Below are positions 13,381-45,468 of a stretch of DNA of 64,000 bases, one piece after another. Source of the stretch: an uncultured delta proteobacterium (GTDB taxonomy: Bacteria > Desulfobacterota > Desulfobaccia > Desulfobaccales > 0-14-0-80-60-11); the NCBI GenBank assembly GCA_963812015.1, contig CAWETI010000002.1, positions 288,001-352,000 of the forward strand, read 5' to 3'. The translations under genes and the position numbers were made by a program. The notes beneath the pieces were generated by a model. It ran no database searches. It worked only from the letters and a program-made list of their open reading frames with translations, and had not been told where the DNA came from. Positions within the stretch are counted from its first letter, which is position 1; every line of letters begins with the position of its first letter.

Positions 13381-13389
13381 AAAACGCTC

Positions 13390-27882: not shown

Positions 27883-27946
27883 TTTACCCCAAGGGATGAA
27901 GTTTCATGCTTTATTGCACCATACTTGAGGACTCGGAGGACCCATA

Positions 27947-28525
27947 ATGTCTCGGATAACCCCAAAACAGTTAGAGGCTAACCGACAAAACGCCTTAAAA
28001 AGCACCGGCCCCAAGACCCCGGAAGGTAAGTCACTGGTGGCCCTGAATCCTATAAAACATGGGCTTTTATCAAAAGAGGTTTTGCTCGCCCATGAAGATG
28101 AAAATTCCCTTGTGGAGTTAGGCAAACGGCTGAGGCACCAATTAGCCCCCGTGGGGGAACTGGAACTTATGTTAGTTGACCGGGTAATTTCAGCGGCTTG
28201 GCGTCTTAGAAGAATACTGAGAATTGAAACGGAGATGATGGACCATAAGCTATCGGATAAGGAGAAATCCCGCATTTCCTATGGCCGGAAGATAAAGCAA
28301 GATCCCGTCACCTTGTGGGAAGCCCTGGAAAGTGATTTTCAATATCGTGATTCGCTATTCAAGTTTATGAGGTATGAAATCCACATAGAACGGGGGCTAT
28401 ACAAGGCCCTGCATGAACTACAAAGACTCCAGGCGGCCCGGAGTGGGGAAGGTGTGCCGGCCACCGTGATGGTGGACGTGGATATATCCGGCCAGGAAAT
28501 GGGTTTGCTTGGCGAAAAAGGCTGA
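27947..28525 (+). CDS. Hypothetical mobile-element protein
   Basis: QLEANRQNALKSTGPKTPEGK..KHGL motif; GGAGG RBS. Confidence 0.7.
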   Translation: MSRITPKQLEANRQNALKSTGPKTPEGKSLVALNPIKHGLLSKEVLLAHEDENSLVELGKRLRHQLAPVGELELMLVDRVISAAWRLRRILRIETEMMDHKLSDKEKSRISYGRKIKQDPVTLWEALESDFQYRDSLFKFMRYEIHIERGLYKALHELQRLQAARSGEGVPATVMVDVDISGQEMGLLGEKG

Positions 28526-28722
28526 AAAGTAGTGAAAAATGCTTGCAAAAACAGGTAAAAATAGGCGCAAAAATGACGAATTTTCTCTGAAAACAGTGAA
28601 AAGTAGCATGAAAATGCCTAAAAATGCAGTTTTTAACGATTATTAAAATAGCACATAAGTAACCATGATTATTGAGATTATAGACGAAAAGCGGGCAATA
28701 AATCCCTAATGATTTAGGAAGA

Positions 28723-29313
28723 ATGAGGGCTAAACACATGGGCGGCCCCGGAAGCGGTGGCGGGTATAGGGGGAATAAAAAGGACACGGTTGAAGGACAC
28801 AAGCGGATTGATGTGCGCTATCTTGTTAAGCACGGCCTTTTAAATCCCGGCTATCATTCAATAGGATGGTCATGCGGGGGTGAATCTAGGGGAAGCATCC
28901 ATTTTCAGGTGGAAGATTACGGGATAACCTTAATTTATCAGTATAGGCGGGGCGGGCAAGACTGGGAAGATGTAAGGCAAAGGGTGACTGTGGAGTGGAC
29001 ACCCTGCAATTTTGGGGGGCGGCGGCCCTGGTTTATTTGCGGGAATTGTGGCCGGCGCGTGGCGGTGATCTATGCGGGTGGCAAATACTTTGCTTGCAGG
29101 CATTGCTATGATCTGACCTATACAAGTTGCCAGGAATCGGACAGCCGGTTTAGCAGGCTTTTACGGAATTACGATTTTGGGGGTGGGGTGGAGAATATGC
29201 CCATGTGGTCATTGAAGGGAGCCTTAAGCAGGATGTGGAAAGAAGAGGAACGGCTTGAAAAGCAGATGAAAAGGAAACGCCGGGGGCGACCACCAAAGAG
29301 CAGATATGGATAG
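28723..29313 (+). CDS. Zn-ribbon hypothetical protein
   Basis: GGRRPWFICGNCGRR..FACRHCYDLTY. Confidence 0.7.
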   Translation: MRAKHMGGPGSGGGYRGNKKDTVEGHKRIDVRYLVKHGLLNPGYHSIGWSCGGESRGSIHFQVEDYGITLIYQYRRGGQDWEDVRQRVTVEWTPCNFGGRRPWFICGNCGRRVAVIYAGGKYFACRHCYDLTYTSCQESDSRFSRLLRNYDFGGGVENMPMWSLKGALSRMWKEEERLEKQMKRKRRGRPPKSRYG

Positions 29314-29394
29314 AATATCAGCAAGGCAGAGGTTGGGGGGAAGAGTGCGGAGATATAGCAGATATCCGAAGTTCTGCTATATTGCTTGGCCACC

Positions 29395-29526
29395 CACCCG
29401 AGCTATACCGACTATCTCAAGACTCAGATGATCTGCTCCGGCGTGTAACGCTTCCTACTCATCTACCTCCCCGCTTCGTTCCACTACTCACCATAACTTG
29501 TAAATCAGTTTTTGGGGGGCAGGTCA
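29395..29526 (-). mobile_element. IS3-family left-end remnant
   Basis: TGACCTGCCCCCC end, GGAGG RBS, degenerate orfA MSRKRYTPEQII*VLR*. Confidence 0.75.
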
Positions 29527-29563
29527 GAGTCTCCTACGCAGCCTTCGAGAACTAACCCCTTAT

Positions 29564-30814
29564 TTAAGGAGATCCTTTAATGCCCATCTTTATTTTGGAG
29601 AAATTGATCCTTCGTGATTGTAAATCTTCATTGAAATTAAAGCCTTTCTCCCTAAATAATGTCAAACATGTGTTTACTACTTCGGAGTCATAAAGAATGC
29701 CCTTCTGTTCATAAATTTCGTCCAGAGCCTTATCGATGCTTTGGGGCGGACCATACGGCCGGTCGCAAATCATGGCTTCCAACACGTCAGCCACCCCCAA
29801 GATCTTGGCTTCCGGGATAATATCCGCCGCAGTCAGGCCGGCGGGATAACCCGAACCATCCAATCTCTCATGATGTTGCAAAATGGTCTGCTGCACAAGC
29901 CAGGGGAAATCGATATTCTCCAAGAGCTCAAATCCCACCTGGCAATGAGATCTGATAAACTCACCTTCCAAGTTACTGAGCACTCCCGGCTTGCTCAGGA
30001 TTTCTGTAGGTACGGCGATCTTGCCGATATCGTGAAGCAAAGCGGCAATCTTAATTCCTTCCAGCTGGTTAAGGGAAAAACCCATCTCTCGGGCTATAGC
30101 GACCGCCAGCTGCGCCACCCGCTTCTGGTGCCCCGCGGTTTGCAGGTATTTCATCTCCACCGCATAGGCAAAGGCTTCGGCTAAACTGTATAGGCAGCTT
30201 CTTAGCCGGCTGGGCATCGACTTCAGGTTCTCTTCTTCTGCCGTGCGCTCTCGGGCCTCCCGTAGCAACCACAGCAGCCTCACCGGCTCATCATGTTGGT
30301 CCGTTTGAGCTCTAACATTGGCGAACAGCGAGAATGGGGCGTCATCCCCAGGTTGGAATTGCAATTCCCAGTTCCGTTTCTCTCCTCCCGTCTGTACTTC
30401 GGTCAGGCTGGCCCGGAAGGCCGGGCGATCTGGTCCCGAAATCAAAAGGGCCAAGGGCGTATTTTTCAGGATATTCTGGCTCATCCTCAGCATGGCTGCG
30501 GCGGCCTGGTTGCTCTCCTGAATAATAGTTTGGGGATCAGTTACCAGATAAGCATCGGAAGCAAAATCGAAGAAGTCCCGACAACGCCGGTATTCGACAT
30601 CCGGAGCTCTTGACGCGGGCGATAGATTGGCCTCTGCCTGGATATCAGCCTCTCCCACTGCGGCTTGGAGAGTTTGCAACAATTGTGAGATGTCGTGCAT
30701 CAATTTGTTGAGGAGAGGTGCCAACTGCATGAAAAAACCGGCTTCGGGTGCCGCCTTAGTTTCGGACATCATGTCGGATCCTGCACAACCATCAATGGTG
30801 AGAGAGTGATACAA
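29564..30814 (-). CDS. PAS + HD-GYP c-di-GMP phosphodiesterase
   Basis: LLHDIGK and HHERLDGSGYP; start codon uncertain. Confidence 0.9.
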   Translation of the reverse strand: MYHSLTIDGCAGSDMMSETKAAPEAGFFMQLAPLLNKLMHDISQLLQTLQAAVGEADIQAEANLSPASRAPDVEYRRCRDFFDFASDAYLVTDPQTIIQESNQAAAAMLRMSQNILKNTPLALLISGPDRPAFRASLTEVQTGGEKRNWELQFQPGDDAPFSLFANVRAQTDQHDEPVRLLWLLREARERTAEEENLKSMPSRLRSCLYSLAEAFAYAVEMKYLQTAGHQKRVAQLAVAIAREMGFSLNQLEGIKIAALLHDIGKIAVPTEILSKPGVLSNLEGEFIRSHCQVGFELLENIDFPWLVQQTILQHHERLDGSGYPAGLTAADIIPEAKILGVADVLEAMICDRPYGPPQSIDKALDEIYEQKGILYDSEVVNTCLTLFREKGFNFNEDLQSRRINFSKIKMGIKGSP

Positions 30815-30988
30815 GACATACTGTTTTTCTCCGCTGCTTAAAGAAATTTAGGGGTTGAAGGGGTGTATCTTGATCCCTCCCGAATTGCGGATTAATCTCC
30901 CGTATCTCACATAGTTGTGCTTATTTCAGTCAATTATTACGGCATAATCCAGGCTTGAAGGGTTCTAATCGGAGCAGTTTGCTATAAT

Positions 30989-31795
30989 TTAGTTATGGGT
31001 CGCTTTGGTGCTGAAGTCTTGCCCACCTATATGACGTAACTTTCGCACTATCTCCTCAGTCTTCTCAGGCTTGTCTTCCCGGATAATAAACTGATTCTTT
31101 CCCAACTTTTTGACCTCATATAACGCCTGGTCTACCCTTTTGATAAAGCTGTCGATGGTGTCTCCTGGTTGATACGCGGACACACCGAAACTGGCAGTTA
31201 CCCTGATAATGGAGTCAGGGAAGGTTATCTCCTCCAAACGATGCAGGAGACGCTCACCGAAAACGGTTGCTTCCTTTCCGCTGGTGCCTGGGAGCATCAT
31301 AATAAATTCATCTCCGCCCCAGCGCGCGATCAAGTCCTCCTGCCGGCTGTTTTCCATCAAGAGAGTGGCAACAGCCTGGAGCACTTGGTCCCCCGCATTA
31401 TGACCAAAAGTATCGTTGACGGACTTAAAGCCGTCTAAGTCGGCCATGATGATGCAAACGGGAGCCTGGTGCCTCTGGGCAAAGGAGATGGCGTGCTCCA
31501 GGCTCTCCAGGAAGATGCGCCGGTTGGCGATGCCAGTCAACGGATCAGTGCACATCAAAGCAATGATGCGGTTATGAACTCCCCGCAGGCGGTTGAAACA
31601 AAAAATAATTCCTCCAAGGCCCAGAAGCCACAAGAGACCATGCCCGCACCAGAGGTCCAATGCAGTCTCCGGCCGCTGCTGTGCCAGGTTCCACCAAAGA
31701 GATAACGCCACCACAGCGGTCCACATGGCCAGGAGCGCCCAGGCATAGCAATTGAGGCGGGAGACCTCCCTACAGCGGGCAATGTGCTGATCCAT
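30989..31795 (-). CDS. Membrane GGDEF diguanylate cyclase
   Basis: Two TM segments, DPLTG, FKSVNDTFGH, RQED I-site and RWGGDEF. Confidence 0.92.
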   Translation of the reverse strand: MDQHIARCREVSRLNCYAWALLAMWTAVVALSLWWNLAQQRPETALDLWCGHGLLWLLGLGGIIFCFNRLRGVHNRIIALMCTDPLTGIANRRIFLESLEHAISFAQRHQAPVCIIMADLDGFKSVNDTFGHNAGDQVLQAVATLLMENSRQEDLIARWGGDEFIMMLPGTSGKEATVFGERLLHRLEEITFPDSIIRVTASFGVSAYQPGDTIDSFIKRVDQALYEVKKLGKNQFIIREDKPEKTEEIVRKLRHIGGQDFSTKATHN

Positions 31796-31995
31796 GATAG
31801 GTTGAACCTTTGGCCCTTGAGTAAGTATGATGCGACATTAAGCAGCGGCAACATCTGGTGAGCAACCCTTGCGCGCCGCCTGTAAGGTTGGGCTGCTAAC
31901 CGCGGGACCGGCACTGGGCCTCATACCAACCCCAGGTGTCAAACCGTAACCAGCAAGGCTTTAATCCTTTTTCGGGTATGCACCCGAGGAAACAA

Positions 31996-32039
31996 TAAAA
32001 AGCCGGGTTGCCTGTGCTTCACTTGCAGGCAACCCGGCT
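31996..32039 (-). terminator. Intrinsic terminator overlapping the riboswitch 3' strand
   Basis: AGCCGGGTTGCCTG...CAGGCAACCCGGCT followed by TTTT. Confidence 0.85.
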
Positions 32040-32102
32040 ATCTCCTGCTCAGAGATCCGTGGCTTTCCGTCCCCAGCTCACACTGGGTTTGGCTTTATCT
32101 GT
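32025..32102 (-). promoter_or_regulatory. c-di-GMP-I (GEMM) riboswitch
   Basis: AAAGCCAAACCCAGT-GTGA-GCTGGGGACGGAAAGCCACGGATC..GATAGCCGGGTTGCC fits the GEMM-I consensus. Confidence 0.9.
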
Positions 32103-32424
32103 AGGATGTTGAGATCTTATCTGAGATTATCCGGGACCTGCCTCACAGAGGTTATTCCCGACAAGTTTCCTTTTTTGCCGTCGAGATGTCTAAGCTGAAC
32201 GATAGTAGCATAAAATTCCATGAATTTGTCAACCAACCAGCCAAAATATATTAATTTTTCAGCCTACCCTTAAGACCCCAGATACTTCACTGCTGTGAGC
32301 GTGCAGACTTCGGGCTAGTAGCGCCCGGTAATGGTTGGCCAATGGGAAAAATCTTATGCGACATATGTTATTCCCTGAGAAGCCCCAGGAGGAGCAATTG
32401 TGCGCCAGATGCTTGTGTCGCTCA

Positions 32425-32525
32425 CTTGCCAGGACCAGCAATTATCAAATGCGTCGGGGAAAATTGCAGATATGATCCGGATATGGGAAGTTTTTGGAGC
32501 TGTGATAAGTTTCGGACCATAGCAG
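32425..32525 (+). repeat. Full copy of the ~100-bp recurrent site
   Basis: CTTGCCA..TTATC..GAAAATTGCAGATATGATCCGGATATGGGAAGTTTTTGG..GTGATAAGTTTCGGACCATAGCAG. Confidence 0.85.
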
Positions 32526-32609
32526 CTATCGCGCGTTGTTTCTTCGCGCATTCGCAATTTGAAAGTATCTTGATGCTGCCTTATTCTTTGTCGCCTGACA
32601 TTCCGTGAC

Positions 32610-34049
32610 TCAAGGGCCCTTGGCCCCGTCGGTCAGCCGTTGCAACCGCCTCTCCACGGTGGGGGGGACCGATGTGAAGTGGATCAGATAACGCCGGCTT
32701 GACTCGTCAAGAGGATGGATCACCTTGGCGTACAACTCCGACTCTTCATCGCCAGCCTCGGCCTCCAACCGGAGCATTATGTTGGCATACGACTCAAGCG
32801 GGCCGGTGACCTCGACTATTGCGCGCCGGGTGGATAGGGATAGCAAGGTTCCAGGATGCAATTTCTCGTCGAGATGCTTGTCGGTCAGACTCATGTAGGA
32901 GAAGGGTATAGGTTCGGCCAGGGTTGTGAAGCTCGCCGCCTCTTCCTTGAGCAAAAGCCCCGGGTGGTCTTCGTGGCCCAACAACTCACGACAATTGAGG
33001 GCCTCCCGCATACCCTTGGCGTGGACTTTGATCTCGTCACCCAGGATGAGGCCCCGTCCAGCGGCGTTTATCAATGTTGGGGAGACGAGCACCTGCCCAC
33101 CGACGGTGAAGCTTTCGATACGCGCCGTCAGGTTGACCGCGCGCCCCACGACTCCGTACTTCGAGCGCTTTGTCGAGCCGATGTTGCCCACCACCACCTC
33201 TCCGGTATGCATGCCTATCCCCATTTCAATTTCGGGCCAACCCATTTGGAAGTTATGTTCGTTTACCCCGCGCATTGCCTTCTGCATCTCAAGGGCACAG
33301 AGGACGGCGCGCTGAGCCGCGTCCGGCATCACCATGGGGGCACCAAAAAGCACGAAGATGGCGTCCCCGATGATCTCATCAATAGTGCCGCTGGTTCGGT
33401 GAATAAGCTCGACCATGGTGGAGAGGTAATGGTTCAATAAGGCAACGACTGCAGTGGCCTCAAGCCGCTCAGCCAGGGCGGTGAACCCCCGCAGGTCGGA
33501 CATCAGTAAGGTAACCTCGCGCTTCTCTCCACCCAGCTTGAGCCCTTCGGGCATGTCGAGGAGCACCCCCACGATGTCGTCGCTCGTGTAACGGCCAAAG
33601 GTCTCCCGGATGAACTGATTGCGACGCTCGAGTTGCTGGTTCAGATTGACGAGTTGGGCGCGGGAGTCCTTCAGTTGCTGAGTCATGGTGTTGAAGGCAA
33701 TGGAGAAGTCCCCCATGAAGTCAACCCTTTGCTCCAGATCACCCCCGGCGATCTGTTGGGTCTTCCAGGTAAGGTGCTTGAGGTTCGATTGAAGGGCCTT
33801 GAAGGATTGGATAATGGCCATGCGGCCCGCCATGGGGCGAATGTCCAATTCTCCCTGGGCGACCTGCGCCATGGATTCGGTGAACAGGGCGAACTCCACC
33901 AGGAAGCGATTCACATAGGTAAGAAGCTGGCGGATCTCATTGTCCGGGAGGTCATCCGGTATAGGGATGGGTTGAGGGACTTTCCCGGTGCGAAGATGAT
34001 GGAACGTTGCGGTAATTTTATCAAGGAGATCCTCTTCAACCTCGATCAT
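32610..34049 (-). CDS. HAMP + class III adenylate/guanylate cyclase with a possible C-terminal PilZ-like domain
   Basis: MSDLRGFT, IGDAI, GEVVVGNIGS and VGRAVNLTARIES. Confidence 0.9.
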   Translation of the reverse strand: MIEVEEDLLDKITATFHHLRTGKVPQPIPIPDDLPDNEIRQLLTYVNRFLVEFALFTESMAQVAQGELDIRPMAGRMAIIQSFKALQSNLKHLTWKTQQIAGGDLEQRVDFMGDFSIAFNTMTQQLKDSRAQLVNLNQQLERRNQFIRETFGRYTSDDIVGVLLDMPEGLKLGGEKREVTLLMSDLRGFTALAERLEATAVVALLNHYLSTMVELIHRTSGTIDEIIGDAIFVLFGAPMVMPDAAQRAVLCALEMQKAMRGVNEHNFQMGWPEIEMGIGMHTGEVVVGNIGSTKRSKYGVVGRAVNLTARIESFTVGGQVLVSPTLINAAGRGLILGDEIKVHAKGMREALNCRELLGHEDHPGLLLKEEAASFTTLAEPIPFSYMSLTDKHLDEKLHPGTLLSLSTRRAIVEVTGPLESYANIMLRLEAEAGDEESELYAKVIHPLDESSRRYLIHFTSVPPTVERRLQRLTDGAKGP

Positions 34050-34058
34050 CTTGGAACC

Positions 34059-34583
34059 TCATTTGGGGTCAACCGTGAAACGACAGACCCTCCCCCCGGT
34101 GCCCCAGCAGTCGACTTCCTTAACGTGGAAGTCCTTCCCCGAATAGGCGAGCAGGAGGCCCGCAATAAATCCTTCATCATAAGTGCAGATCTCCTCCGAG
34201 CACACTGGGATCCCCGAGCAATCAAGATCCTCTGCCACAGTTACTACGAAAGAGCCCTTTTCGTAATCGGCCGATTCGACGCGGAAGATCCCAATGCCGA
34301 GTTCCTTCATCGTGCGCTGGAGATCGGCAAACAGGCCATCCAAGTCCTTATGCTCGGTAAGGATGTTTTTGCAATACTCTTCACCGGCTTTCTTACCAGC
34401 CTCGAAAATAATCCGGTCGGTCTTCTCAACCCCAAATTCCCGGATGAGGAGGTCGCGCAGCGTGAACTGCATCAGGCGGTAAACAGCCACGTGCACCATG
34501 GGGCCGAGATTCGGCCGCCCTTTTTCGATATCGCCCAACATGCTCCATTCGAATTGGCTTTCTTCCCGTTCTTCTTTGAACAT
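34059..34583 (-). CDS. V4R-domain protein
   Basis: EDLDCSG..CTYDEGFIAG..EVDCWGTGGRVCRF. Confidence 0.88.
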   Translation of the reverse strand: MFKEEREESQFEWSMLGDIEKGRPNLGPMVHVAVYRLMQFTLRDLLIREFGVEKTDRIIFEAGKKAGEEYCKNILTEHKDLDGLFADLQRTMKELGIGIFRVESADYEKGSFVVTVAEDLDCSGIPVCSEEICTYDEGFIAGLLLAYSGKDFHVKEVDCWGTGGRVCRFTVDPK

Positions 34584-34706
34584 GTGCTTACTCTCCTCCC
34601 TACGAGATCATAACTATTGATGCCTCGGCGTTTATGTTCTTCCTGGCCTGCCCATTACTATCCTCCCCAGGAATCCGAGACATTGCGGCTCCTCTAAATT
34701 TAAGGT

Positions 34707-34750
34707 TATGGGAGCTTTTTGGCTCTGTGATAAGTTTCGGATCATAGCAG
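34707..34750 (+). repeat. Right half of the recurrent site
   Basis: TATGGGAGCTTTTTGGCTCTGTGATAAGTTTCGGATCATAGCAG. Confidence 0.8.
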
Positions 34751-34761
34751 AACTCTTCTAC

Positions 34762-37386
34762 TTACCCATCCCCGTGCAAGATTAGGCCCGACCAGAAATA
34801 TGGATGAGGTTCCTTGGCCCGCACTGCCTGGCGGGCGACCTTTAATGCCTCAATCTTGGGCTTCCCCTCCTTTAGGGCCTTATAAAAGGTCTCATAAAAC
34901 TTCATGGACTCATCCACCGGGATGTTCCACAGGGCCACCATGACGCTGCGGGCCCCGGCCTGTTGGAAGGCCCGGGCGAAATTCAGCACCCCTTCCCCCT
35001 GCATCACCTGGCCTACCCCGGTCATGCAGGCGGCCAGAGTCACCAGATCCGCATCCAGTTTCAACTGCAACACCTTGCTGAAAGTCAGGAACCCGTCATC
35101 CGGTGGTTTATTTTCTACTTGAGTCAGGACCAGCGTGGGCTCTCGCACCCCGGCAATCTTATCCGCTAAAAACCCGTGGGTGCCGAAGAAGAGATAGCGA
35201 TATTGGCCCAGGCTAGTCTGCCGCACTTTTGTTTCCGTGGCGAAGACATCCAGGAGCACCTGGGGAGGCTGGGGCTTTTCCTGGAAGAGGGCGGCCAGTT
35301 CCAGCACGGTCTGGCGAGTCTCCGGCAGCGGCGGAAACTCCAGCCGCCCCCACCCCTTGTCGGTGGCCGCCATAGTCATAGCCTTTTCCGGCCCCGCACC
35401 CCGGAGTTCCCCCGCCTTCTCCTTGCCTGCCTTATAGGCCAGATAGCGGCTGTTATCCTTGGTGTAGATGCAGTCCCCCAGGGCAAAGAGGGGCTGACCG
35501 GCTTTGGAAGAACCCAAAACCCGGTTCAAGACTAGAATAGCAGCGGACTGAAAATAGGTGACAGGCCAGCGGTCTCCCACCAGGGTGCTTTTGTCCCAGC
35601 CGGCGCCGGCCTGCACCACCAGAGCCTCAAAGGGGAAGGCTCCCAGGGCGCCATCGGGAACGATGATCAGTTTGGTGCCAGGATTCACCCCGACCAGTGC
35701 CGGGGCCAGGATCTCCTGATACAAGGAGGCCGCCTCGCTCACTGAAAAACGGGATAAATCCTCGCGCCGCAAGACGCTTTTCCGAAAAGGCGCCAGCATG
35801 GCCCCCAGGCGCTTTTCCAGGGCCTCCTGCCCCAAAGCCAGCCGGAACACCTGGGTCTTGCCCCCGGGTTCCACCCGGAAAAGATAACTGTCCTTATCAC
35901 CCAGGGCGTACTCCAGCAGCACCTCCCCCGGCTTCAGGGGCAGCTCCTGGGCCTTATACGGTTGGGGATAGGCTAGCGCCGCATACCGGGGTTCCCGGTG
36001 GCGCAGTTCCGTAACCAAGCTATCCATCTCCCGTTGCAAGGCTTCCCTATGGAGTTGGAAATCCTGGGCCGGCTGATCCTTCCGATCCCCTCTTCCCCCC
36101 TTTGACATTATCCGTTCTGCCCTTTGGGCTTCCAGGGTCTGCAAGCGCTCCTGGAGATTTTTCTCCTTAGCCGCCAACTCCGGGGGCAATTGGGGGGCCA
36201 CCCGCGCCGCCCCGGCGGCAAGGGCCTCCAGCAAAGAACGGGCCTTGATTGCTTCAGCAAAATAAAAGGCCGCAGCAGAGAGATCCGGTCCATAAGCTTG
36301 CAAGCCCGCAGGAGCAGGATCGCCTTTCTGGGCCATCTCCGCCAGTAAACCTGTCATACCCTGATAGGCGCGAAAATAGCCACCCAGAACCCCCGACTCG
36401 AAGAAGCTGGTGCGTTCCCCTGAGGTGAGGGCCCGCAACCCTTCGATATTCTTGATGGCCTGCATGAAAGCGGCAGACGCCTCTCCCCGGCTCCCCAACC
36501 CCTGGAGCGCCAACCCTTTTTGCGTATAATAAAGCGCCTGGACTTGGGGGGGGGTCCATGCCAAGGGGACGAGATGAGAGGTTAAGAGGTTCAGGGCTGA
36601 TGCATACTGCCTGGTGGCCAGATAAAGTTCCACCATACCGCGGTGTCCCTCTGGGGGTTGAGCCCGGAGGAAAGTGGATTCGGCCTGGTTATAATCTTTC
36701 TTGACCAGATAGATAAATCCCAGAGTCGTGAGACTGCGTGCGGTCTGTCGGTTTTCTAGTCCTAATGCCTTTTCATTGATCTGCGCGGCGCGTCGGGCCA
36801 AGGGCAGAGCCTGGTCATAGGAACCCTCCTGGCAATAAAGGATCGCTAGATTGTACAAGGCGGACGCAGTCTGCCGGTCTTCCGGCCCCAACGCCTTTTC
36901 GCTGATCCGTAAACCTTGCTGGATCATGAGCAACGCCTTTTCCCGGGCTCCCATCTGTCCATAAAGGTACCCCAGGATTATCTGGCTCTGGGCGGTTTGG
37001 GAGTGTTCGGGCCCCAGGACCTTCTCATTGAGCTGGAAGGCTTTATGGGCCAGGGGCAGAGCCTGATCGAAGAAACCGAGAATAGAGTATAATCTTGCCA
37101 AATGTGCCATACACTTGGCGGTGAGCGGATCTTCTGGTCCCAAGGCCCTCTCGCTGAGACTCAGGGCCTGCTTGTAAGTATTCAGGGCGGTAATGCCAAG
37201 ACCAGCATCCACATCAGCCCAGGCCTTTTTCAGTAATTCCTTGACTTCGGCCGCCTCCGGCTTTTGGCCGGCTACTGGCATCTCCATACCTAAAGTTGAC
37301 TGGGGACTCTTCTTGGCGGCATAGCCGTATGTTCCAAATAAGCCAAAGAGCAAGAGGCAGAAGCAAACAGAGATGAGTCTGACCAT
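34762..37386 (-). CDS. Exported TPR + CHAT (caspase-like) protein
   Basis: Signal peptide, LGPEH/LGPED TPR repeats, IVPDG, THG, LAAC and HPYFWSG. Confidence 0.9.
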   Translation of the reverse strand: MVRLISVCFCLLLFGLFGTYGYAAKKSPQSTLGMEMPVAGQKPEAAEVKELLKKAWADVDAGLGITALNTYKQALSLSERALGPEDPLTAKCMAHLARLYSILGFFDQALPLAHKAFQLNEKVLGPEHSQTAQSQIILGYLYGQMGAREKALLMIQQGLRISEKALGPEDRQTASALYNLAILYCQEGSYDQALPLARRAAQINEKALGLENRQTARSLTTLGFIYLVKKDYNQAESTFLRAQPPEGHRGMVELYLATRQYASALNLLTSHLVPLAWTPPQVQALYYTQKGLALQGLGSRGEASAAFMQAIKNIEGLRALTSGERTSFFESGVLGGYFRAYQGMTGLLAEMAQKGDPAPAGLQAYGPDLSAAAFYFAEAIKARSLLEALAAGAARVAPQLPPELAAKEKNLQERLQTLEAQRAERIMSKGGRGDRKDQPAQDFQLHREALQREMDSLVTELRHREPRYAALAYPQPYKAQELPLKPGEVLLEYALGDKDSYLFRVEPGGKTQVFRLALGQEALEKRLGAMLAPFRKSVLRREDLSRFSVSEAASLYQEILAPALVGVNPGTKLIIVPDGALGAFPFEALVVQAGAGWDKSTLVGDRWPVTYFQSAAILVLNRVLGSSKAGQPLFALGDCIYTKDNSRYLAYKAGKEKAGELRGAGPEKAMTMAATDKGWGRLEFPPLPETRQTVLELAALFQEKPQPPQVLLDVFATETKVRQTSLGQYRYLFFGTHGFLADKIAGVREPTLVLTQVENKPPDDGFLTFSKVLQLKLDADLVTLAACMTGVGQVMQGEGVLNFARAFQQAGARSVMVALWNIPVDESMKFYETFYKALKEGKPKIEALKVARQAVRAKEPHPYFWSGLILHGDG

Positions 37387-37564
37387 ATTATCCTCCCCTG
37401 ACCCTGCTAAGGGAAAATCCGAGGCTTAGCTAATGGCGTGCCGTGGCTTGGAGGCGGAAGCAAAGATATATAGGTCCATTCACCAACTTCTGAAATTCAC
37501 ATTGCCACGAGGAGGTAGGATTGTCAAGAAATGGACCTTTGGTCAAGGTTCCTTGGCTCACCAT

Positions 37565-37664
37565 CTTGCCAGCCCCTGCAGTTATCATCGGGCCGGTAGA
37601 AATTATACATATGGTCTGGATATGGAAGGTTTTTGGCTTCGTGATAATTTTTGGATCATAGCAG
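37565..37664 (+). repeat. Full copy of the recurrent site
   Basis: CTTGCCA..GTTATC..GAAATTATACATATGGTCTGGATATGGAAGGTTTTTGG..GTGATAATTTTTGGATCATAGCAG. Confidence 0.85.
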
Positions 37665-37754
37665 TAACCGCCACTATTCACTCCGCTTAGCCGATCGAGC
37701 ACTTGATCAAAAATGCACTCAGGTTTTCAACGAACGGATTTGGTATGTATCTAG

Positions 37755-38912
37755 TTATAGAAAAAGTTCCTGTATCACTTGGAGGCCACCAATCAAGGCC
37801 AGCAGACCGATAAGATTTGGAGGAGACATCCCACCCAGAGCGCCAAGCACCAACACCGCGGCAGCACCTCCGAAGCGGAAGACCAGGCGAGTTTTCTGAA
37901 TCTTTCTCCGGCTGACGTCAATAATGAGTTGGATACAGCCGATGGATAGTAAAACCAAGGCTGCTGCTCCGCAACTGAGCCAGCGCTCTCCCGCCGGCAA
38001 GGCCAGGTCCTGAGGGCTGGCTACCGCATACTGTACGCCCACGGCGCCGGCCGCCAGACCGATGACCAGGGGGAGATGGGCGTAAAGCCAGCCCTGGTAA
38101 AGCCAGATGCGCCCCTTGGCCCGGGCGACGCGTATGGCGGCGCCGTCAATATTGTCAAAATAGGCCCACCAGAAGGTGAAGGCGAGGCTCAACCCCAACG
38201 CCGCGGTAAGTCCGGACTGGATACTCCAGGCGTGTTTCGTTAAACCCATCACAACCCCCGCGATTGCCTCTCCCAGCACGAAGAGGATAAAGGAGGCGAA
38301 GCGTTCAGGCAGGTGGGCGGCGTGAGGTGCCAATCGAGAGTGGAGTTTTTCCCCGGCCGTCAGAGGGGTGGCGAAATCAATCAGGAGACCGAATCCCCAC
38401 AGGTAAAAACGGAATGGCGTCGGGACCCAGGCCGACACCAACCAGATGGTCGCAGCCGCGCCGAAGCCCAGACCATAGCGTTTCGTCAAGGAGCGGGCGA
38501 CAGGCACCCAGACATGGGCGCCCAGGTATTCTCCCACCAGGATGAAGCGCACCGCGGCATACGAGAGGGCGAAGCCGGCTGAAGCGTGGCCCAAACCGGC
38601 ATGAACATTCACCGCCATGGCTGCGACCGCAAACATCTGGGCGATGATGAACAGGCGTTGTCCCAGATCGTCGGTGTCAAACCGGTCGGCATAAAAGGAC
38701 TGGCCTACCCAGGCCCACCAGACCGGGACGCACAAAAAGGCGAAACCGAGGACTCCGGGGACGGAAAGGCCCTGACTGAGCCCAAAAGTCAATTGGGCCA
38801 CCACCGAGGCAAAGAGCAGGTCATAAAAAAGCTCTAGCCAGGTGGCGTGCCGTTCTTCTTCCGCCCCCTCACCGATGCGCAGCCGCGGCGGTTTCCACAC
38901 TATTTTTTTCAT
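37755..38912 (-). CDS. Low temperature requirement protein A (LtrA) family
   Basis: ATWLELFYDL, WWAW and HLPERF. Confidence 0.9.
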   Translation of the reverse strand: MKKIVWKPPRLRIGEGAEEERHATWLELFYDLLFASVVAQLTFGLSQGLSVPGVLGFAFLCVPVWWAWVGQSFYADRFDTDDLGQRLFIIAQMFAVAAMAVNVHAGLGHASAGFALSYAAVRFILVGEYLGAHVWVPVARSLTKRYGLGFGAAATIWLVSAWVPTPFRFYLWGFGLLIDFATPLTAGEKLHSRLAPHAAHLPERFASFILFVLGEAIAGVVMGLTKHAWSIQSGLTAALGLSLAFTFWWAYFDNIDGAAIRVARAKGRIWLYQGWLYAHLPLVIGLAAGAVGVQYAVASPQDLALPAGERWLSCGAAALVLLSIGCIQLIIDVSRRKIQKTRLVFRFGGAAAVLVLGALGGMSPPNLIGLLALIGGLQVIQELFL

Positions 38913-38947
38913 ATCGGATCAGATCGTTGGCCCAAGCCGCTCTTGGC

Positions 38948-39862
38948 TCATCTCTTGGCGTGTTTGATGAAAATGCCCTCCTGATATTCCTTGAACGCCT
39001 GTTGCAATTCTTCCTGTGTATTCATAACGATAGGACCATACCACGCTACGGGTTCGCCAATGGGCTGGCCCGAGATCAGGAGAAACCGCACCGGGCTGGC
39101 AGGAGCAAAGACTGCCACCTCATCGCCCTCCCCGTAATGGATAATGGTCCGATTGCCGCAGACACACCGGCGGTCAAAATCAAAATAGTTAGACCCTATG
39201 ACTTCATGCGCATAGGCATCCCGCTCGGGGTCGAAATAGCCTTCCCCCTCTATGACGTAGGCAAAGGCCGTATGGCCCCGCCGGATTGGATGATGGAACT
39301 CGGCTCCAGCCGGCACCAAGACATCGAGGTATTCCGGGTCCGTGACAATATCCTTGACCGGTCCCCGAGTTCCGTTAACTTGCCCGCAAATGATCTTCAC
39401 CTTGACGCCCTGAGTTAAAGAGACCTCGGGAATCTGGGCGGCCTTCACGTCCCGGTAGCGGGGTTCCATCATCTTGCGGGAGGCCGGAAGATTGGCCCAG
39501 AGCTGGAAGCCGTACATGCGACCTCGGGTATCCCCCTTGGGCATCTCCTGGTGGATGATTCCGCTGCCTGCCGTCATCCACTGCACGTCTCCCGGGGTGA
39601 TTACCCCCTTGTTGCCCATGCTGTCGCCATGTTCCACTTCTCCAGCCAGGATGTAGGTAATCGTTTCAATCCCCCGGTGTGGATGCCAAGGAAAACCCTT
39701 TAGATAGTCGGTGGGATCATCCCCGCGAAAATCGTCCAGGAGGAGAAAAGGGTCGAATTGGGGCACTTGGTCGTACCCGAAGGCCCGCCGGAGGCGGACC
39801 CCAGCGCCTTCCATTGTGGCCCTGCTTTGCCACACCTTGTTAATTTTTCTTATCTTGGCCAT
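38948..39862 (-). CDS. Pirin family protein
   Basis: DPFLLLD, HPHRGIETIT and MTAGSGIIHQE. Confidence 0.95.
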   Translation of the reverse strand: MAKIRKINKVWQSRATMEGAGVRLRRAFGYDQVPQFDPFLLLDDFRGDDPTDYLKGFPWHPHRGIETITYILAGEVEHGDSMGNKGVITPGDVQWMTAGSGIIHQEMPKGDTRGRMYGFQLWANLPASRKMMEPRYRDVKAAQIPEVSLTQGVKVKIICGQVNGTRGPVKDIVTDPEYLDVLVPAGAEFHHPIRRGHTAFAYVIEGEGYFDPERDAYAHEVIGSNYFDFDRRCVCGNRTIIHYGEGDEVAVFAPASPVRFLLISGQPIGEPVAWYGPIVMNTQEELQQAFKEYQEGIFIKHAKR

Positions 39863-40091
39863 GGATATCCCTCTGGTTGATACCGCTTGACATGCTTGCG
39901 GAGAAAGTTGTGCATCAGGTCGGTTATCTAACCGCCATCATTCTGCTCGAGCGGTCGTAGGTGATTAGTCTGCGAGATTACCCACCTCAATTGACACCCG
40001 GTTCCTCCAAACAATCGATCTGTCTTTAAGTTAAGATGGCCAAGGACATGGGTCAACTCACCCATTATTTAGGCGAAGACACGGTCGATAT

Positions 40092-40306
40092 CTTGCCAGA
40101 TCATGCAGTTATCATCGGACGGGCAGAATTTATAGATATGATCCGCATATCATATGGGGGCAACAGTGGGGAGGAAGATTTCAGATGTCGGTGATGGGGA
40201 AACGCCAGTTTACCGGCGGGAATGGCAGGAATCCTTCAGGCCAAAAAGGCTTGATATCCTCTGGATATGTAAAGTTTTTAGAGCCGTGATAAGTGTCGGA
40301 TCATAG
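40092..40306 (+). repeat. Recurrent site split by ~110 bp (left half 40092-40150, right half ~40254-40306)
   Basis: Left half matches the 37565 copy; right half matches the 15471 copy. Confidence 0.8.
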
Positions 40307-40490
40307 ATGCTATGAAAGGTTTCTTGCGCTGGCCTCCTGATATAAAAGGTGAAGTTTCGCCAGAAAAGACAAAGAGAGGAGGCTGACCATGGACCACAAG
40401 CAGGGAAAGCAGGTCAGAGAACAGAGCGCCCAGGGGCCAGTTTTGTACGTGGCCTTCGAACTGGCAAAGCATGGAAGATGGCAAGGGCAC
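40307..40490 (+). mobile_element. IS110-family 5' remnant
   Basis: GGAGG RBS, ATG 40389, VLYVAFEL then frameshifted AWKMA, resembling the IS110 RuvC N-terminus. Confidence 0.55.
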
Positions 40491-40533
40491 AGAGGCGGGG
40501 GAAAGTTTTCTCGGTGATGCAGAGGCGGTCCAC

Positions 40534-40806
40534 CTATTCCATTTCAAATGTACGAGTTTCCCCCATATCTTGGTCATAGACTTCGACATCAACAGATGAG
40601 CCATTCCTCTGGATTGAATCCACATCTCCATATCGATATTCGCCCTTATCATAATCATAAAATTCAATTTCTTGCCCGGGTCGGACCAGGTTCCCTTTCT
40701 CAATCTCAACGGAAGTGCCATTTTCATAGTCGTATCCATCCCATGCGAGGACTGGGACAGAACACACAAGCCAGAGAAGAGCGACAGAAATAGCAATTCT
40801 TATCAT
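40534..40806 (-). CDS. Small exported acidic protein (DUF5334-like)
   Basis: Signal peptide, then WDGYDYE..VEIEKGNLVR; GGAGG RBS. Confidence 0.7.
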   Translation of the reverse strand: MIRIAISVALLWLVCSVPVLAWDGYDYENGTSVEIEKGNLVRPGQEIEFYDYDKGEYRYGDVDSIQRNGSSVDVEVYDQDMGETRTFEME

Positions 40807-40887
40807 CGTTTGACCCTCCTTTCTTTTTTCCTTGGATTGATCGAGGTAGCCGTTGCAAGAGGTTTGGCCGGGTTGCCCTAAGCCTCC

Positions 40888-41694
40888 CTAATAATAAACG
40901 GGTGACCTTTTTCCAAACAACTTGGCTATCTCTTTGATAATTTTTCTCCACCCAAGACTTCTCATTTCAGCAAAGGATAATTCACTAATAAGATGGCCCT
41001 CATACGTGAACACTTCTTCTGGTGTAACTTCTCTATCATGAAATAGATTTAAATACTCTCGCCTAACAAATATTGCATTACAATGTACATTTGCTAATAA
41101 GATGTACTGTTTACTAACTGCAAGCTCTGTCATGGATGAGATGCTTGTTCCTGTATAACCAGTAATACCCCACATGGATGAGATGCTTGTTCCGCTATTA
41201 TCAAAAACAATTGATGAACCTGGCTTATTCATACGTTTTATTCCAGGTTTATCACGTATGTTAATCTCGATTATGACAACTTTTGGCTGATAATTATCTA
41301 AAGATTTCCATATATGATAATCATCACCGTCAACATCAATTGACAACAAATCGAATTGTTTTGGAATAGGCGTTAAACCTAATATTTTATCGAGTCTATT
41401 TTCCCCTTCGGGTCTTACAAAAGCATTGACACAAAAAGTGTCGTAGCCTTTCATGTTTTCACGCAAAAGATTATATTTCAACGGATCTGCTTCAATCATA
41501 ACACCATGGTAACCTAAGTGTGAAATAAAGTAATATGTATTACTTTCAGATTTGCCATCCCATGCTCCAAATTCTACGCACCAACCCGTCTTATCAGGTA
41601 TTTTTGATAGAACAAAAGCCAGTAGTCCATCTTCACCTTGTTTAGAAAAAAATGATTTGCGGTGGCTGAGTAATTTTTCAACTGTATCTTTCAT
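40888..41694 (-). CDS. FkbM-like SAM methyltransferase
   Basis: SKQGEDG, VEFGAWDG and LLSIDVDGDDY. Confidence 0.8.
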   Translation of the reverse strand: MKDTVEKLLSHRKSFFSKQGEDGLLAFVLSKIPDKTGWCVEFGAWDGKSESNTYYFISHLGYHGVMIEADPLKYNLLRENMKGYDTFCVNAFVRPEGENRLDKILGLTPIPKQFDLLSIDVDGDDYHIWKSLDNYQPKVVIIEINIRDKPGIKRMNKPGSSIVFDNSGTSISSMWGITGYTGTSISSMTELAVSKQYILLANVHCNAIFVRREYLNLFHDREVTPEEVFTYEGHLISELSFAEMRSLGWRKIIKEIAKLFGKRSPVYY

Positions 41695-41835
41695 GAGGCG
41701 TCACGTTACGCATGGAAACCGCAGGCAGGCGGGGTTGAGCTGATCCTTGGCAGTTAAAACACAAAAGGCCCCATCTTGCGGACAAGGGCCTTCGGCTGTT
41801 AATACATACACCAAGCGAGCGTTCTGGTCTTTTTT

Positions 41836-42069
41836 CTAATATCCCGAGCGGTGAGAATAATGGCTCGAATGGCTCTCATGGCTCGAATGGCTTTCGTGTT
41901 GGCCGATTACGGTGTCTATGCTGCTACCAATGGACTTCCCGTGCTCCAGATAAAGGGGTGATTTGGCGCTAATGTCCGGTACCGCTGCCGATACAGTCGC
42001 TGCCGATATGCCGAAAAGAGCCACAAGACCTGCAAGAACGCCCATCACCTTGCTGGATAGGCCTTTCAT
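41836..42069 (-). CDS. hxsA: His-Xaa-Ser repeat precursor peptide
   Basis: C-terminal HESHSSHESHSSHYSHRS; AAGGAGG RBS; terminator-like hairpin at ~41763-41792. Confidence 0.9.
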   Translation of the reverse strand: MKGLSSKVMGVLAGLVALFGISAATVSAAVPDISAKSPLYLEHGKSIGSSIDTVIGQHESHSSHESHSSHYSHRSGY

Positions 42070-42262
42070 AAAACCCCCTCCTTCGCCTCTAAATAGCCAA
42101 TTTAGCAATAATTTTGGTCTGACATTACACTCATAAGATATATGCTACTCTTAAAAATTCAATATGCAAGCAATTTATTTCTTTATTAAATGGCAATCAA
42201 GGTAAGTCCGCAGTGCTGAAGCAAATCGGTTGACAGACTCGCCTCCACTCCCTCCTTCAATG

Positions 42263-43387
42263 CTATTGCGGGCAAATATGGGGGCTTTGATGCGATCCGG
42301 AGGTTGTGAAAATCCCACAGCACTTCGATTTAACTGAGCATCCTTCACATACTGGAAGGTAATCATTTTTCCATCCTGAAATTGACTGCCTTGCAAAACC
42401 CCATGCCTTCGATTCAATCAGGCATAGCGGGAGGTTATAAATTGAGACGCTCATGTCCGCACGGCTCAACACCCTAATTGCCCGTGAAAGCTCATGACGG
42501 TAGTCATGCGGGTCAATCCAAACAGTCTCGTAATGATCGCAAGCAAGTCCGGTTATCTCCATTCCCATGAAGGCGCAGTGTTTGATGAAGGGAAAGTTCC
42601 TTTGAATGAAGGTTGCAATGGACTCAAGGCGGTGAGCGTTGATACGGCTCACAACTACCCGGATTTCAATCTTCTCCCGAAAGCGAGCGAGGTTCTGGAG
42701 GCCCATTGCTGTCTTATAGAAGCTGCCTTTAACACCTACAATCCGGTCATGAACCTCATCCACATCACTATGCATAGAAACACAGGTAAGAAAATCTTTG
42801 GGTCTTAATGATACAAAACGCTTTGTGAACTCGAATTTGGCGAATGACTTGCCGTTTGTGAGCAGCATAACGGTTGAGTCCGGATGTCTTTTGTTGATTA
42901 TCCCCAGGATATCGAAAAAATCTTCCTTCAATAGGGTAGGTTCTCCGCCAGTCAGGCAGATAGCCTGAGTATTCTCAATTTTGACAAGATTAAGGATTTG
43001 TTTACTTGTCTCCGTTAAAGTTCTATCGTGTGCTTTCGGCGGTTGTGGACACATAAGGCAATGGCAATCACACATCTCCGTCAGAAGGAGCGAATTCGTT
43101 GGGGACTTTTTCTCACAAACAACCGATATGACGCCGTCCTTGCCGATACGAACGCAATCTCCCTCTTGCAGTTTTTCTAAAACTTCGCCAGAAACTTTAG
43201 TTTGTGGTAACAAGCTCTTATTTTTACTAGAGTCTTTCACTATCAGTCCCGCAAAGCCCCTTGACAGTAACGAAGTCTCTTCAGTTACAAGAACGCTGTT
43301 ACCTCGCGATAGAGCCAGCGGGTTGCGCGTCACCAAGCCAAGAATCGGGGTCTCTATGTTCTCTGCTATCCCTTTAAATTGTCTCAT
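42263..43387 (-). CDS. hxsC: His-Xaa-Ser system radical SAM maturase
   Basis: CDCHCLMCPQPP, TGGEP and SISGWKN; gene context. Confidence 0.9.
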   Translation of the reverse strand: MRQFKGIAENIETPILGLVTRNPLALSRGNSVLVTEETSLLSRGFAGLIVKDSSKNKSLLPQTKVSGEVLEKLQEGDCVRIGKDGVISVVCEKKSPTNSLLLTEMCDCHCLMCPQPPKAHDRTLTETSKQILNLVKIENTQAICLTGGEPTLLKEDFFDILGIINKRHPDSTVMLLTNGKSFAKFEFTKRFVSLRPKDFLTCVSMHSDVDEVHDRIVGVKGSFYKTAMGLQNLARFREKIEIRVVVSRINAHRLESIATFIQRNFPFIKHCAFMGMEITGLACDHYETVWIDPHDYRHELSRAIRVLSRADMSVSIYNLPLCLIESKAWGFARQSISGWKNDYLPVCEGCSVKSKCCGIFTTSGSHQSPHICPQ

Positions 43388-44847
43388 GCTTCTTTACCGC
43401 GCACTTCTTTTAAACTCCGACCAGAAATCCACGACCAGAATACATCCATTTCATCAGGGTCGTTGCGCTTGAGTTTTTTGAATAGCATATCGAAGATTAG
43501 CTTGTTCTTCTTGCAGAAATCGTTACCCGGACGTTTCCCCATAAGGTCGCCTGTCTCAAGATAATTGCGTACAGGGTAGGAACCGCAGTAGGTGCGATAA
43601 ACGCAAGAGCTGCAATAAGGCATGATCTCGACACATGACTTGCTGACAATCTCCCGGAGCAGTTCCCCTCCAAAAATGCTTTCATAGGAATCTTTGAAAA
43701 CATTTCCAAGGCAGAAACGGCGGTCGCCCATCCTGGCGAGCATGCGCGCCTCATCTGCGGGGAAAACATCTCCGTTGTAGTCATAAATCGCGCCTGAAAT
43801 GCCTGCACCTGATGGAGATTGGAGATCGACGAAACCAGTGGAAAAAGGTGTAAGGATACGAGTAAGCAGAAGGTTCGTGTAGAACTCTACAAACCTTGGG
43901 CCGTTAAGATTGAGTTGGACGATAAGATTAAGGGCTTTTTCGAAATTCTCGACAAAATGCTCTACGGGATACCCCAGATGCTCCGCGTTCTTGGCGGCTA
44001 AACCATAGGGATTAAGCGACCGGATAAATATCCCATTGAAGCCAAGCTGGACATACTCTGCAACAACCTCTTCCAAGTGGTCGATGTTATCTATAGTGGT
44101 TGTCATGAGGGCATTCACCTGACCACGAAGGAGGATGTCGAAGGCTTTGTAGAGGTTTTTGATAAACGCATCGTAGGTACCGCCGCCACTTCTCAGTATC
44201 CGGTTCTTGTCGTGAAGGTTCCGGGGGCCGTCAAGAGAGGTAGATATGTGTATGCCATGTTCTTTAAAGAACATTAGCTGTTGCGTGTCAACCATGACGA
44301 GATTGGTGCAAACGACGAAAACAAGATGCTTATGGTATTTCTGGTTAACCTTCTTCGCATAAAGGACAGTCTCTTTTAGCGTCTCCCAGTTAAGGGTAGG
44401 CTCACCGCCTTGGAACTCTATCTTTATCGAGGGGGAAGGGGATTTGAAAATATAGTCAACAACACGGCGAGCCACCTCAGGTGACATGTCAAAGCCCTTT
44501 GCGTCGTCCACTTCAGCGGTCACCTGGCAGTATGAACAAGCGTTGCAGCACTTCAGGGTGATGACCATCATGTGGAGAGAGGTGAAATTTGAGAGAAATC
44601 TTTTCCGAGTCCGGTACTTCGCTGAAACCATCTCCAGCGTTTCCGGCAAGTGTTCCGTATTGAGGAAATGCCTGCTCTTTAAGTCGTAGCAGGAGAGGGA
44701 ATCGGGGGTCAGGTCGCTCTGTATGAACTTATGGAAATCGTCCTTATTGAGGAAGATGTATTCGCCACTTTCGTTGACGAGCAAGTAGTCATTGCTGTTA
44801 AACCGAGAGAACTGGAATGGCAGTATGTTCTGCCGTTGGTCGTTCAC
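43384..44847 (-). CDS. hxsB: His-Xaa-Ser system radical SAM/SPASM maturase
   Basis: CCNACSYCQ, EFQGGEP, DLQSPSGAG and ADEARML. Confidence 0.92.
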   Translation of the reverse strand: MNDQRQNILPFQFSRFNSNDYLLVNESGEYIFLNKDDFHKFIQSDLTPDSLSCYDLKSRHFLNTEHLPETLEMVSAKYRTRKRFLSNFTSLHMMVITLKCCNACSYCQVTAEVDDAKGFDMSPEVARRVVDYIFKSPSPSIKIEFQGGEPTLNWETLKETVLYAKKVNQKYHKHLVFVVCTNLVMVDTQQLMFFKEHGIHISTSLDGPRNLHDKNRILRSGGGTYDAFIKNLYKAFDILLRGQVNALMTTTIDNIDHLEEVVAEYVQLGFNGIFIRSLNPYGLAAKNAEHLGYPVEHFVENFEKALNLIVQLNLNGPRFVEFYTNLLLTRILTPFSTGFVDLQSPSGAGISGAIYDYNGDVFPADEARMLARMGDRRFCLGNVFKDSYESIFGGELLREIVSKSCVEIMPYCSSCVYRTYCGSYPVRNYLETGDLMGKRPGNDFCKKNKLIFDMLFKKLKRNDPDEMDVFWSWISGRSLKEVRGKEA

Positions 44848-45462: not shown

Positions 45463-45468
45463 AAGATT

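Follow-up and report, generated by a model that had tools for sequence, protein, structure and literature searches.

The dif modules of Acinetobacter are of two types that have to alternate and are flanked by inversely oriented sites, and a single module of this kind cannot excise (PMC13141974; here and below, cited papers are represented by the accessible parts of their text). Pairs of dif modules leave between directly oriented sites with matching spacers, and extensive shuffling of the modules has been reported (PMC13141974). Here we describe a family of small sites, and the tyrosine recombinase gene that belongs to it, in an uncultured delta proteobacterium of the Desulfobaccales. The family came to attention in a stretch of 64,000 nucleotides, hereafter the window (GenBank assembly GCA_963812015.1, contig CAWETI010000002.1, positions 288,001 to 352,000), in which four such sites separate three unrelated gene blocks. 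Coordinates without a label are those of the window; G, C and L followed by numbers are our handles for genomes, contigs and loci, G000 being the present assembly.

Insertion sequences (IS) provide a second point of comparison. They encode a DDE transposase, and an autonomous element is accompanied by internally deleted copies, including miniature inverted-repeat transposable elements (MITEs), and by passenger-carrying derivatives. Elements of the IS1202 family reportedly target plasmid dif (pdif) sites. The sites and gene blocks described here point, on balance, to a gene-shuffling system that has so far escaped description, in which element and cargo modules alternate and would be moved by exchange between two cores of the same kind, termed R and L (R×R or L×L).

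The site family, its recombinase and the array

Every complete site consists of a small inner module with a core at either end, the two cores (L and R) being inverted relative to each other. Inward of each core lies an A-tract, followed by a GATAT box. When L and R are aligned as inverted counterparts, they have in common an inward arm, GATAAGT, and an outward NTATC, and differ in the central 7-mer, which is CTTGCCA in L and either ATAGCAG or AGGGCAG in R. These 7-mers are near-invariant (172 of 179 L sites; 186 of 220 R sites with one or other form), although the matrices and the metagenome pattern were seeded on them, such that the near-invariance is partly built in and weighs correspondingly less in favor of our reading. 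The inner module contains nothing, filler, a passenger gene or the recombinase, and cargo sits between R and the next L. Among 103 L-to-R elements, the core-to-core size is 75-84 bp in 40, 176-210 bp in another 40, and 1027-1030 bp in the eight that harbor the recombinase, with 15 of other sizes, some of which hold a passenger gene. In an alignment of 14 recombinase loci, which were chosen by protein and not by site, the element ends sharply at the two 7-mers.

Across the whole genome, a weight matrix at a score cut-off of 20 finds 31 R and 48 L sites, against none of either in the reversed genome. The family amounts to 59 elements in 23 clusters; 36 neighboring elements are no more than 15 kb apart, whereas 2000 random placements give 11.7 on average and never more than 22. 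The clusters are not enriched at tRNA genes (6 of 13 multi-site clusters lie within 20 kb of one, against 5.4 expected), and viral contigs contain no exact match to the site pattern. Of 189 transitions between neighboring sites, 157 alternate between L and R; 105 of these run L-to-R, for the most part inside a single element. Solo ends of either kind are common in the genome.

A number of variants extend this picture. Read from L to R, a passenger gene replaces the recombinase at G000 C2:1185972-1187620 (a radical-SAM-like open reading frame, or ORF, by motif) and at L058:9739-10764 (a DUF116 protein). Diverged R-like ends that retain the 7-mer are found in the window at 4229-4312, 9340-9377, 22918-22999 and 29277-29368, and some such ends adjoin the motif GGGGGGTATGGGACCC (21659, 23104) in satellite-like stretches. 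L222 and L256 each harbor, at 6001-6095, a 95-bp element with an inverted R at both ends, whereas L248:1-160 is an element with two R ends in tandem. In both kinds of element the join lies within or next to the middle GATAT box, possibly a third exchange point.

The full-length element of the window (14468..15524, plus strand) consists of an L core, a tyrosine recombinase gene and an R core. The gene starts with an ATG at 14570, contains an A8 run at 14625-14632 and a premature TAA at 14970-14972, and stops at 15407. It is the only strong tblastn match in the assembly (14570-15407) and, as assembled, is broken by the premature TAA. An earlier note, made from the letters of the window alone, had placed the only candidate recombinase outside the tRNA island in which the array is housed, and this gene does lie there. 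Matches by tblastn are present in 18 of 60 relatives, many without internal stops, and at E <= 1e-60 the recombinase is found in 19 of 301 genomes of the phylum. By record titles, the element occurs in Desulfobaccales, Syntrophobacteraceae, Desulfobacterales and Desulfobulbaceae. At E <= 0.001 the family grows to 5314 database proteins, distant tyrosine recombinases included, and no plasmid or phage record matches at 1e-30.

The enzyme is a simple Xer-like tyrosine recombinase of approximately 280 amino acids (aa), encoded by the single ORF of the 1.03-kb element. The catalytic set (R, K, H-x-x-R, H, Y) is complete in intact relatives, the catalytic domain has no extra insertion relative to a plain phage integrase, and among proteins of solved structure the best match is to an archaeal XerC-like protein (E 1e-15). 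In 10 of the 14 aligned loci, an A-rich run near codon 20 marks a one-frame offset between the main ORF and its start codon and ribosome-binding site; of the rest, two are in frame, one has an extra base and one lacks a start. A rougher census of 51 loci gives 41 shifted and 10 in frame. The joined product is confirmed by natural in-frame proteins (P0076), and the gene appears to be read usually via a programmed +1 slip on the A-run near codon 20.

The array itself contains four same-orientation copies of a repeat, family D1 (32460-32522, 34685-34747, 37599-37661 and 40244-40306). The earlier note had described four co-oriented sites and three blocks of minus-strand genes that end 12-91 bp from a site. 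The repeat copies, ORF coordinates and Pfam matches (Guanylate_cyc, V4R, TPR+CHAT, LtrA, Pirin) bear out the layout, with all block genes on the minus strand, and the measured distances agree, the block stop codons lying 84, 11 and 90 bp past the R 7-mer. Its recurrent site is a real and co-oriented repeat, although not one unit, in that two copies are L plus R (111 bp), one is R only and one is L, filler and R (approximately 225 bp).

Site 1 (32420..32530, plus strand) is of the short form, with its L core at 32420-32446 (7-mer CTTGCCA, 32425-32431), the middle box, and its R core at 32504-32530 (7-mer ATAGCAG, 32519-32525). Cargo block 1 (32610..34583, minus strand) encodes an adenylate/guanylate cyclase (32610-34049) and a V4R protein (34059-34583). 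Site 2 (34704..34755, plus strand) is an R end with no L that begins within the middle box, with its 7-mer at 34744-34750; one contig of sequencing run X3 tracks the V4R flank to 34705 at this site and then diverges. Cargo block 2 (34762..37386, minus strand) encodes a TPR-CHAT protein, according to Pfam. Site 3 (37560..37669, plus strand) is again of the short form (L core 37560-37586; R core 37643-37669, 7-mer 37658-37664), and cargo block 3 (37755..39862, minus strand) encodes LtrA (37755-38912) and pirin (38948-39862). Site 4 (40087..40306, plus strand) is of the medium form, with its L core at 40087-40113, conserved filler at 40159-40245 and an R core that is interrupted inside the 7-mer. 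Contigs of four sequencing runs agree with stretches of the array, those of run X1 in several pieces without differences.

The interruption of site 4 is the start of a truncated IS110-like element (40307..40482, plus strand), which matches two whole and near-identical 1.7-kb copies on C3 at 82-83%. The fragment and the whole copies (G000 C3:449829-451549 and C3:890470-892189) have the same insertion point in the R 7-mer. The protein of the whole copies resembles a Pfam-confirmed IS110 transposase, and the window fragment itself has no Pfam match. Sites reading ...ATAGAAGCAG look like the scar or right junction of an IS110-like element (L127), and a second IS110 (352 aa) is found at the L core in several loci.

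Neighboring elements are co-oriented in 32 of 36 cases, against 57-65% predicted from gene-strand runs (p <= 0.001). Replichore bias was considered as a cause and rejected, as both site orientations occur in regions of the same weak skew, judged by eye. Genes also show a polarity with respect to the cores: of 32 that lie at most 150 bp from R, 30 are directed towards it (after clustering, 20 of 22), and this is repeated in metagenome loci (18 of 20). Genes within 600 bp of L mostly point away (55 of 76), a tendency that is not repeated in metagenome loci (10 of 17); the contrast between R and L in the metagenome subset is not significant (p 0.34 at 300 bp).

Sites that share an orientation and lie at gene 3' ends, in an island with an integrase and a genome with host Xer-like genes, are what would be expected of an integron-type array with attC sites and IntI, of a pdif array served by host XerCD, or of tandem accretion by the tRNA integrase of the island. 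Such an origin is nonetheless very improbable, and these models are largely refuted. Complete sites 1 and 3, on both strands, fold no better than shuffles and so lack an attC-type fold (z +0.15 to +0.91), and the right part of site 4 folds (z about -2.5) via local hairpins that include the IS110 junction. The recombinase is far below the cut-offs for the integron integrase (TIGR02249, 41.6 bits against 265), XerC (53.5 against 335) and XerD (52.3 against 330), and its best NCBIfam score, for XerA, is 105.7 bits against 220. The core consensus is unlike the one dif-like site that a motif search finds in the genome; pdif sites are 28 bp long, with XerC and XerD arms and a 6-bp spacer. Finally, the array sites are unrelated to the attachment (att) duplication of the island and are scattered across the genome.

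Where flanks change partner

Sixty relatives were searched for synteny of the blocks, with four candidates scored per genome and with genes called by a simple in-house caller. Conservation of the whole 8-kb stretch as one unit, which the earlier note had named as evidence against an assembled array, was not seen, as no match spans two whole blocks. The blocks were expected to recur in other neighborhoods beside the same site halves, and for two of them this holds, although most homologues are site-free. The cyclase block has R at the identical position in seven loci, with an inner sequence that is short, medium, full-length or unclassified, and the TPR-CHAT block has R at the identical base in five loci with different neighbors. 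Further block homologues have diverged R-like ends at the same base. In G016 a TPR-CHAT unit, a truncated recombinase element and a cyclase unit follow each other in the reverse of the window order, and the 3' end of LtrA has an R in G008 too, offset by 7 nucleotides.

The idea that the blocks are inserted cassettes survives in part. R is joined at a fixed base, but the blocks are not precise two-ended units and correspond to the 3' ends of longer operons. In several relatives, the cyclase and V4R genes form the 3' end of a longer Mla-ABC/MscS operon. In relatives, TPR-CHAT is the last gene of a unit made up of a CHASE2-cyclase, a 243-aa protein and TPR-CHAT, of which the upstream genes are missing in the window. 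An Mla-type ABC operon, of the type that precedes V4R-cyclase in relatives, is found twice in this genome (9569-13360 and G000 C3:1655097-1659028, 97.7%), away from the cyclase block.

The flank-pair analysis covers 220 R and 179 L sites, among which kin genomes and clustered sites are not independent, so that its counts carry less weight for our reading than their size suggests. Homologous R flanks are in exact register in 69 of 98 pairs (16 clusters), usually with different inner types, and homologous L flanks in 10 of 19. Within the genome, duplicates of 1516 bp (99.7%) and 4054 bp (99.975%) start at the R 7-mer behind unrelated inner sequence. The longer of these comprises 4306-8359 and G000 C2:806001-810054, encodes a rhodanese and a [NiFe]-hydrogenase small subunit, and starts at a diverged R end; at its far end, the window copy is cut at a microhomology within the hydrogenase gene.

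A linkage profile was drawn from 44 inner-sharing and 73 outer-sharing pairs for R, and from 23 and 30, respectively, for L. Where two sites have the inner side in common, their identity is at background from the first base past the R 7-mer; where they have the outer side in common, background is reached at the first base past the L 7-mer. As read from these alignments, each core has its own exchange point, and the two lie at different 7-mers. The 7-mer stays in register even where the rest of the site is unrecognizable (R flanks, 6 of 11 with one self-hit dropped, control offsets 2.6%; L flanks, 7 of 15, control offsets 1.1%). The opposite flank differs between the members of a pair (R, 18 of 19 pairs; L, 14 of 15), the single exception being the same element at the same locus. 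Both 6-bp flanks are at background in inner-linked pairs and high in outer-linked pairs; both thus stay with the cargo, and there is therefore no footprint of the Tn916 or SE type. An earlier crossover model, with seven bases exchanged after CTTGC and before AGCAG, predicted hybrid sites of which 0 and 0 were found, and it is superseded by the linkage profile.

None of the expected L×R products was found. In 48 elements, the 6-bp sequences on the outer sides of L and R match each other at 2.6 of 6 positions against a background of 2.7, and no target duplication is seen. No tandem junction is present in 59 R-to-L intervals, and no true empty site is found among 689 L-flank and 1081 R-flank placements, in 6.1 Mb of sequence sampled around occupied sites and containing no very close strain. 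One empty-site candidate was rejected, since the whole short element is present. Site-to-site joints in run X1 were likewise set aside, their short sides of 25-45 bp being explained by other repeat copies.

How might these features arise? We suggest that the recombinase is supplied in trans at a low level and would recombine like with like, R with R and L with L, the 7-mer acting as the overlap that must match between partners. A cargo-plus-element pair would be released in circular form and could then enter at another R or L with its orientation kept, in the manner of the C+D pairs of the dif-module system, and such entry at existing sites in a fixed orientation would build co-oriented arrays. 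As L and R are inverted and have different overlaps, a single module should be able neither to excise nor to flip. Later deletions and IS insertions would trim the far ends, such that the blocks of the window may be R-anchored remnants of longer modules. The array of the window is probably inert unless the enzyme arrives from outside, because the only recombinase copy is broken.

Alternatively, an IS-like recombinase transposon could have left the sites behind as MITE-like relics, each inserted singly at a preferred target near a gene end; adjacent deletions would later have changed one flank, and the blocks would never have been moved by the sites. The inverted-repeat-like ends and the internal-deletion size classes fit such a history, as do the common solo ends and the block far ends, which are not fixed and of which one formed at a microhomology. 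So do two full-element copies in G025, which differ in both flanks and yet agree at 99.5% over 1045 bp. Set against this, element ends of the short, medium, full and diverged kinds are all found joined to one and the same cargo base, the opposite flank differing each time; neither target duplication nor empty site is seen; neither 6-bp flank travels with the element; and near-identical cargo duplicates start at the R 7-mer. We therefore consider relics of single insertions to be unlikely, though a serious alternative to exchange between like cores.

A one-ended capture has also to be considered, in which only R is active and recombines with cryptic sites at variable distance, L being mainly a landing place for other mobile elements. 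The R-anchored blocks with variable far ends suit this scheme, as do the replicated 3'-end polarity at R (30 versus 2; 18 versus 2), the lack of replication at L, and the IS110 elements found there. However, no cryptic core is evident at the far ends inspected, and flanks other than IS elements switch partner at the L 7-mer too, namely a 94% identical flank of 828 bp and a 3.8-kb element that starts exactly at L. Capture at R alone thus appears improbable. The 3.8-kb element, which starts at the L 7-mer, is found twice (94%; G000 C3:453858-457666 and C3:996792-1000613). It encodes a protein of 511 aa and a separate tyrosine recombinase of 206 aa.

Several observations count against like-with-like exchange of alternating modules. 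Neighboring sites fail to alternate in 32 of 189 transitions, which are L-L or R-R. A site is present at only 3 of 18 cyclase, 2 of 9 TPR-CHAT, 1 of 5 LtrA and 0 of 1 pirin loci, and none of five cargo pairs with a common R end, a small sample, also matches at the L end. At least one shared L flank and at least one shared R flank are site-targeting IS110 elements and not cargo. The G025 pair is explained in one step by plain transposition and in two by the module model, which in addition provides no explanation for the position of R at gene 3' ends. No credible excision junction is found in the assembled contigs of four runs, and the flank-pair set contains no inner module swapped between the same two flanks.

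The tRNA-Arg island around the array

The array is housed in a tRNA-Arg(CCG) island (23495..46859), delimited by a 50-bp terminal duplication at 23495-23544 and 46810-46859. The island is thus real, as the earlier note had supposed in describing a cassette array within a tRNA island, but the site system is not specific to the island, which possesses its own, separate integrase. This 362-aa protein is encoded by an uninterrupted ORF (45653..46741, plus strand) and is 23% identical to the element recombinase. The note was consequently mistaken in having the only candidate recombinase lie outside the island. In several relatives, the left flank of the island lies directly beside the tRNA side. 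A cargo-free version was not found among the 60 relatives, in which the island core is poorly conserved.

The island core (23843-29313) holds five ORFs with almost no family matches, and a 578-aa AAA-like protein is the sole core gene with DNA matches in relatives (66-68%). A diverged R-like end (29330..29368, plus strand, 7-mer 29355-29361) closes the core, and the HD-GYP/GGDEF/riboswitch block between this end and site 1 may be a further cargo block. Immediately to the left of site 1, a cyclic di-GMP-I riboswitch (32024-32102, minus strand) lies upstream of the GGDEF and HD-GYP genes (29564-31795). An Rfam scan finds no family at the sites and, in the window, only a tRNA and this riboswitch; a promoter scan of the array gives four matches against 5.2 expected. 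A low-GC block (40888-45227), with an FkbM-type methyltransferase and two radical SAM genes, separates site 4 from the island integrase. Outside the island, a worn short-form copy (repeat I3) is found in the opposite orientation (21814..21917, minus strand). Remnants that we take to be IS3-like are found at 13380-13695 and 29428-29526, and the end at 29428-29526 is multi-copy in the genome.

Comparison with known systems

Judged by its sequence features, the L/R system is not a member of the integrons, pdif modules, SEs, GInts, RITs or Tn916. With integrons and attC-site clusters that have no integron integrase (CALIN), as far as the account in PMC4889954 extends, it has in common co-oriented sites at gene 3' ends, arrays apart from the recombinase, and a varying cargo order. 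It differs from them in having no folded attC, no IntI and no attI by a gene 5' end, in that the cargo is multi-gene and open-ended, and in that the recombinase gene lies inside the site.

IS elements with MITEs resemble the present family in an autonomous element of about 1 kb with deleted derivatives, in imperfect inverted ends and, probably, in a slippage-controlled enzyme. Here, in contrast, the enzyme is a tyrosine recombinase, no target duplication or empty site was found, and each flank changes independently of the other. Tn916, Tn554, SE, GInt and RIT elements move by tyrosine recombinases and likewise have imperfect inverted ends and variable 6-bp flanks, in the accessible parts of PMC10214605 and PMC5812530, and SEs leave no empty site (PMC10214605, PMC5812530), of which none was found here. 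However, SE, GInt, RIT and Tn554 elements encode two to four recombinase-related genes (PMC10214605, PMC5812530), as opposed to one small gene here, and Tn916 and SEs carry a 6-bp coupling or footprint sequence at one end (PMC5812530, PMC10214605), whereas here neither 6-bp flank travels. The accretion of integrative and conjugative or mobilizable elements (ICEs and IMEs) with cis-mobilizable elements (CIMEs) at tRNA genes, as outlined in PMC5704250, similarly gives decayed att-bounded units in a tRNA island that are open to mobilization in cis; the internal sites described here have no relation to the tRNA att, nor are they enriched at tRNA genes. The IntDes group was considered and does not fit, since, in the accessible description, it has an arm-binding domain and an altered catalytic set (PMC8138268). 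The main text of PMC3711429, its supplements aside, contains no mention of an integrase or recombinase. No description of the present element was found in the literature searched, subscription journals and supplements lying outside that search.

In its apparent mode of action, the L/R system would, by analogy, work most like the dif modules, as these are presented in the accessible account (PMC13141974). Both have two alternating module types with inversely oriented sites and IS elements that target the sites. Dif modules rely on the host XerCD, whereas the candidate enzyme here is a dedicated recombinase encoded as an inner module; furthermore, the cores are not dif-like, the arrays are chromosomal and the cargo genes are polarized towards R. 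Here there are apparently only two spacer types, and orientation would therefore be kept, unlike in dif modules.

If the mechanism holds, it represents an undescribed route for building accessory-gene arrays in relatives of the sulfate reducers. Two non-interchangeable cores would be a natural counterpart of heterospecific lox pairs, and a single recombinase of approximately 280 aa with two orthogonal 27-bp cores would make a compact candidate tool for cassette exchange. If it fails, the family still defines an IS-like tyrosine-recombinase element family with MITEs, of which the literature searched holds no description. More tentatively, and with less confidence than we attach to the shuffling itself, we propose that a third natural system of gene modules, next to integrons and dif modules, exists in the Desulfobacterota. 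This system would combine a dedicated, slippage-throttled and module-encoded recombinase with two non-interchangeable cores, operon-end capture and orientation-locked arrays, in a network shared by passenger genes and satellite-like elements and exploited by IS110.

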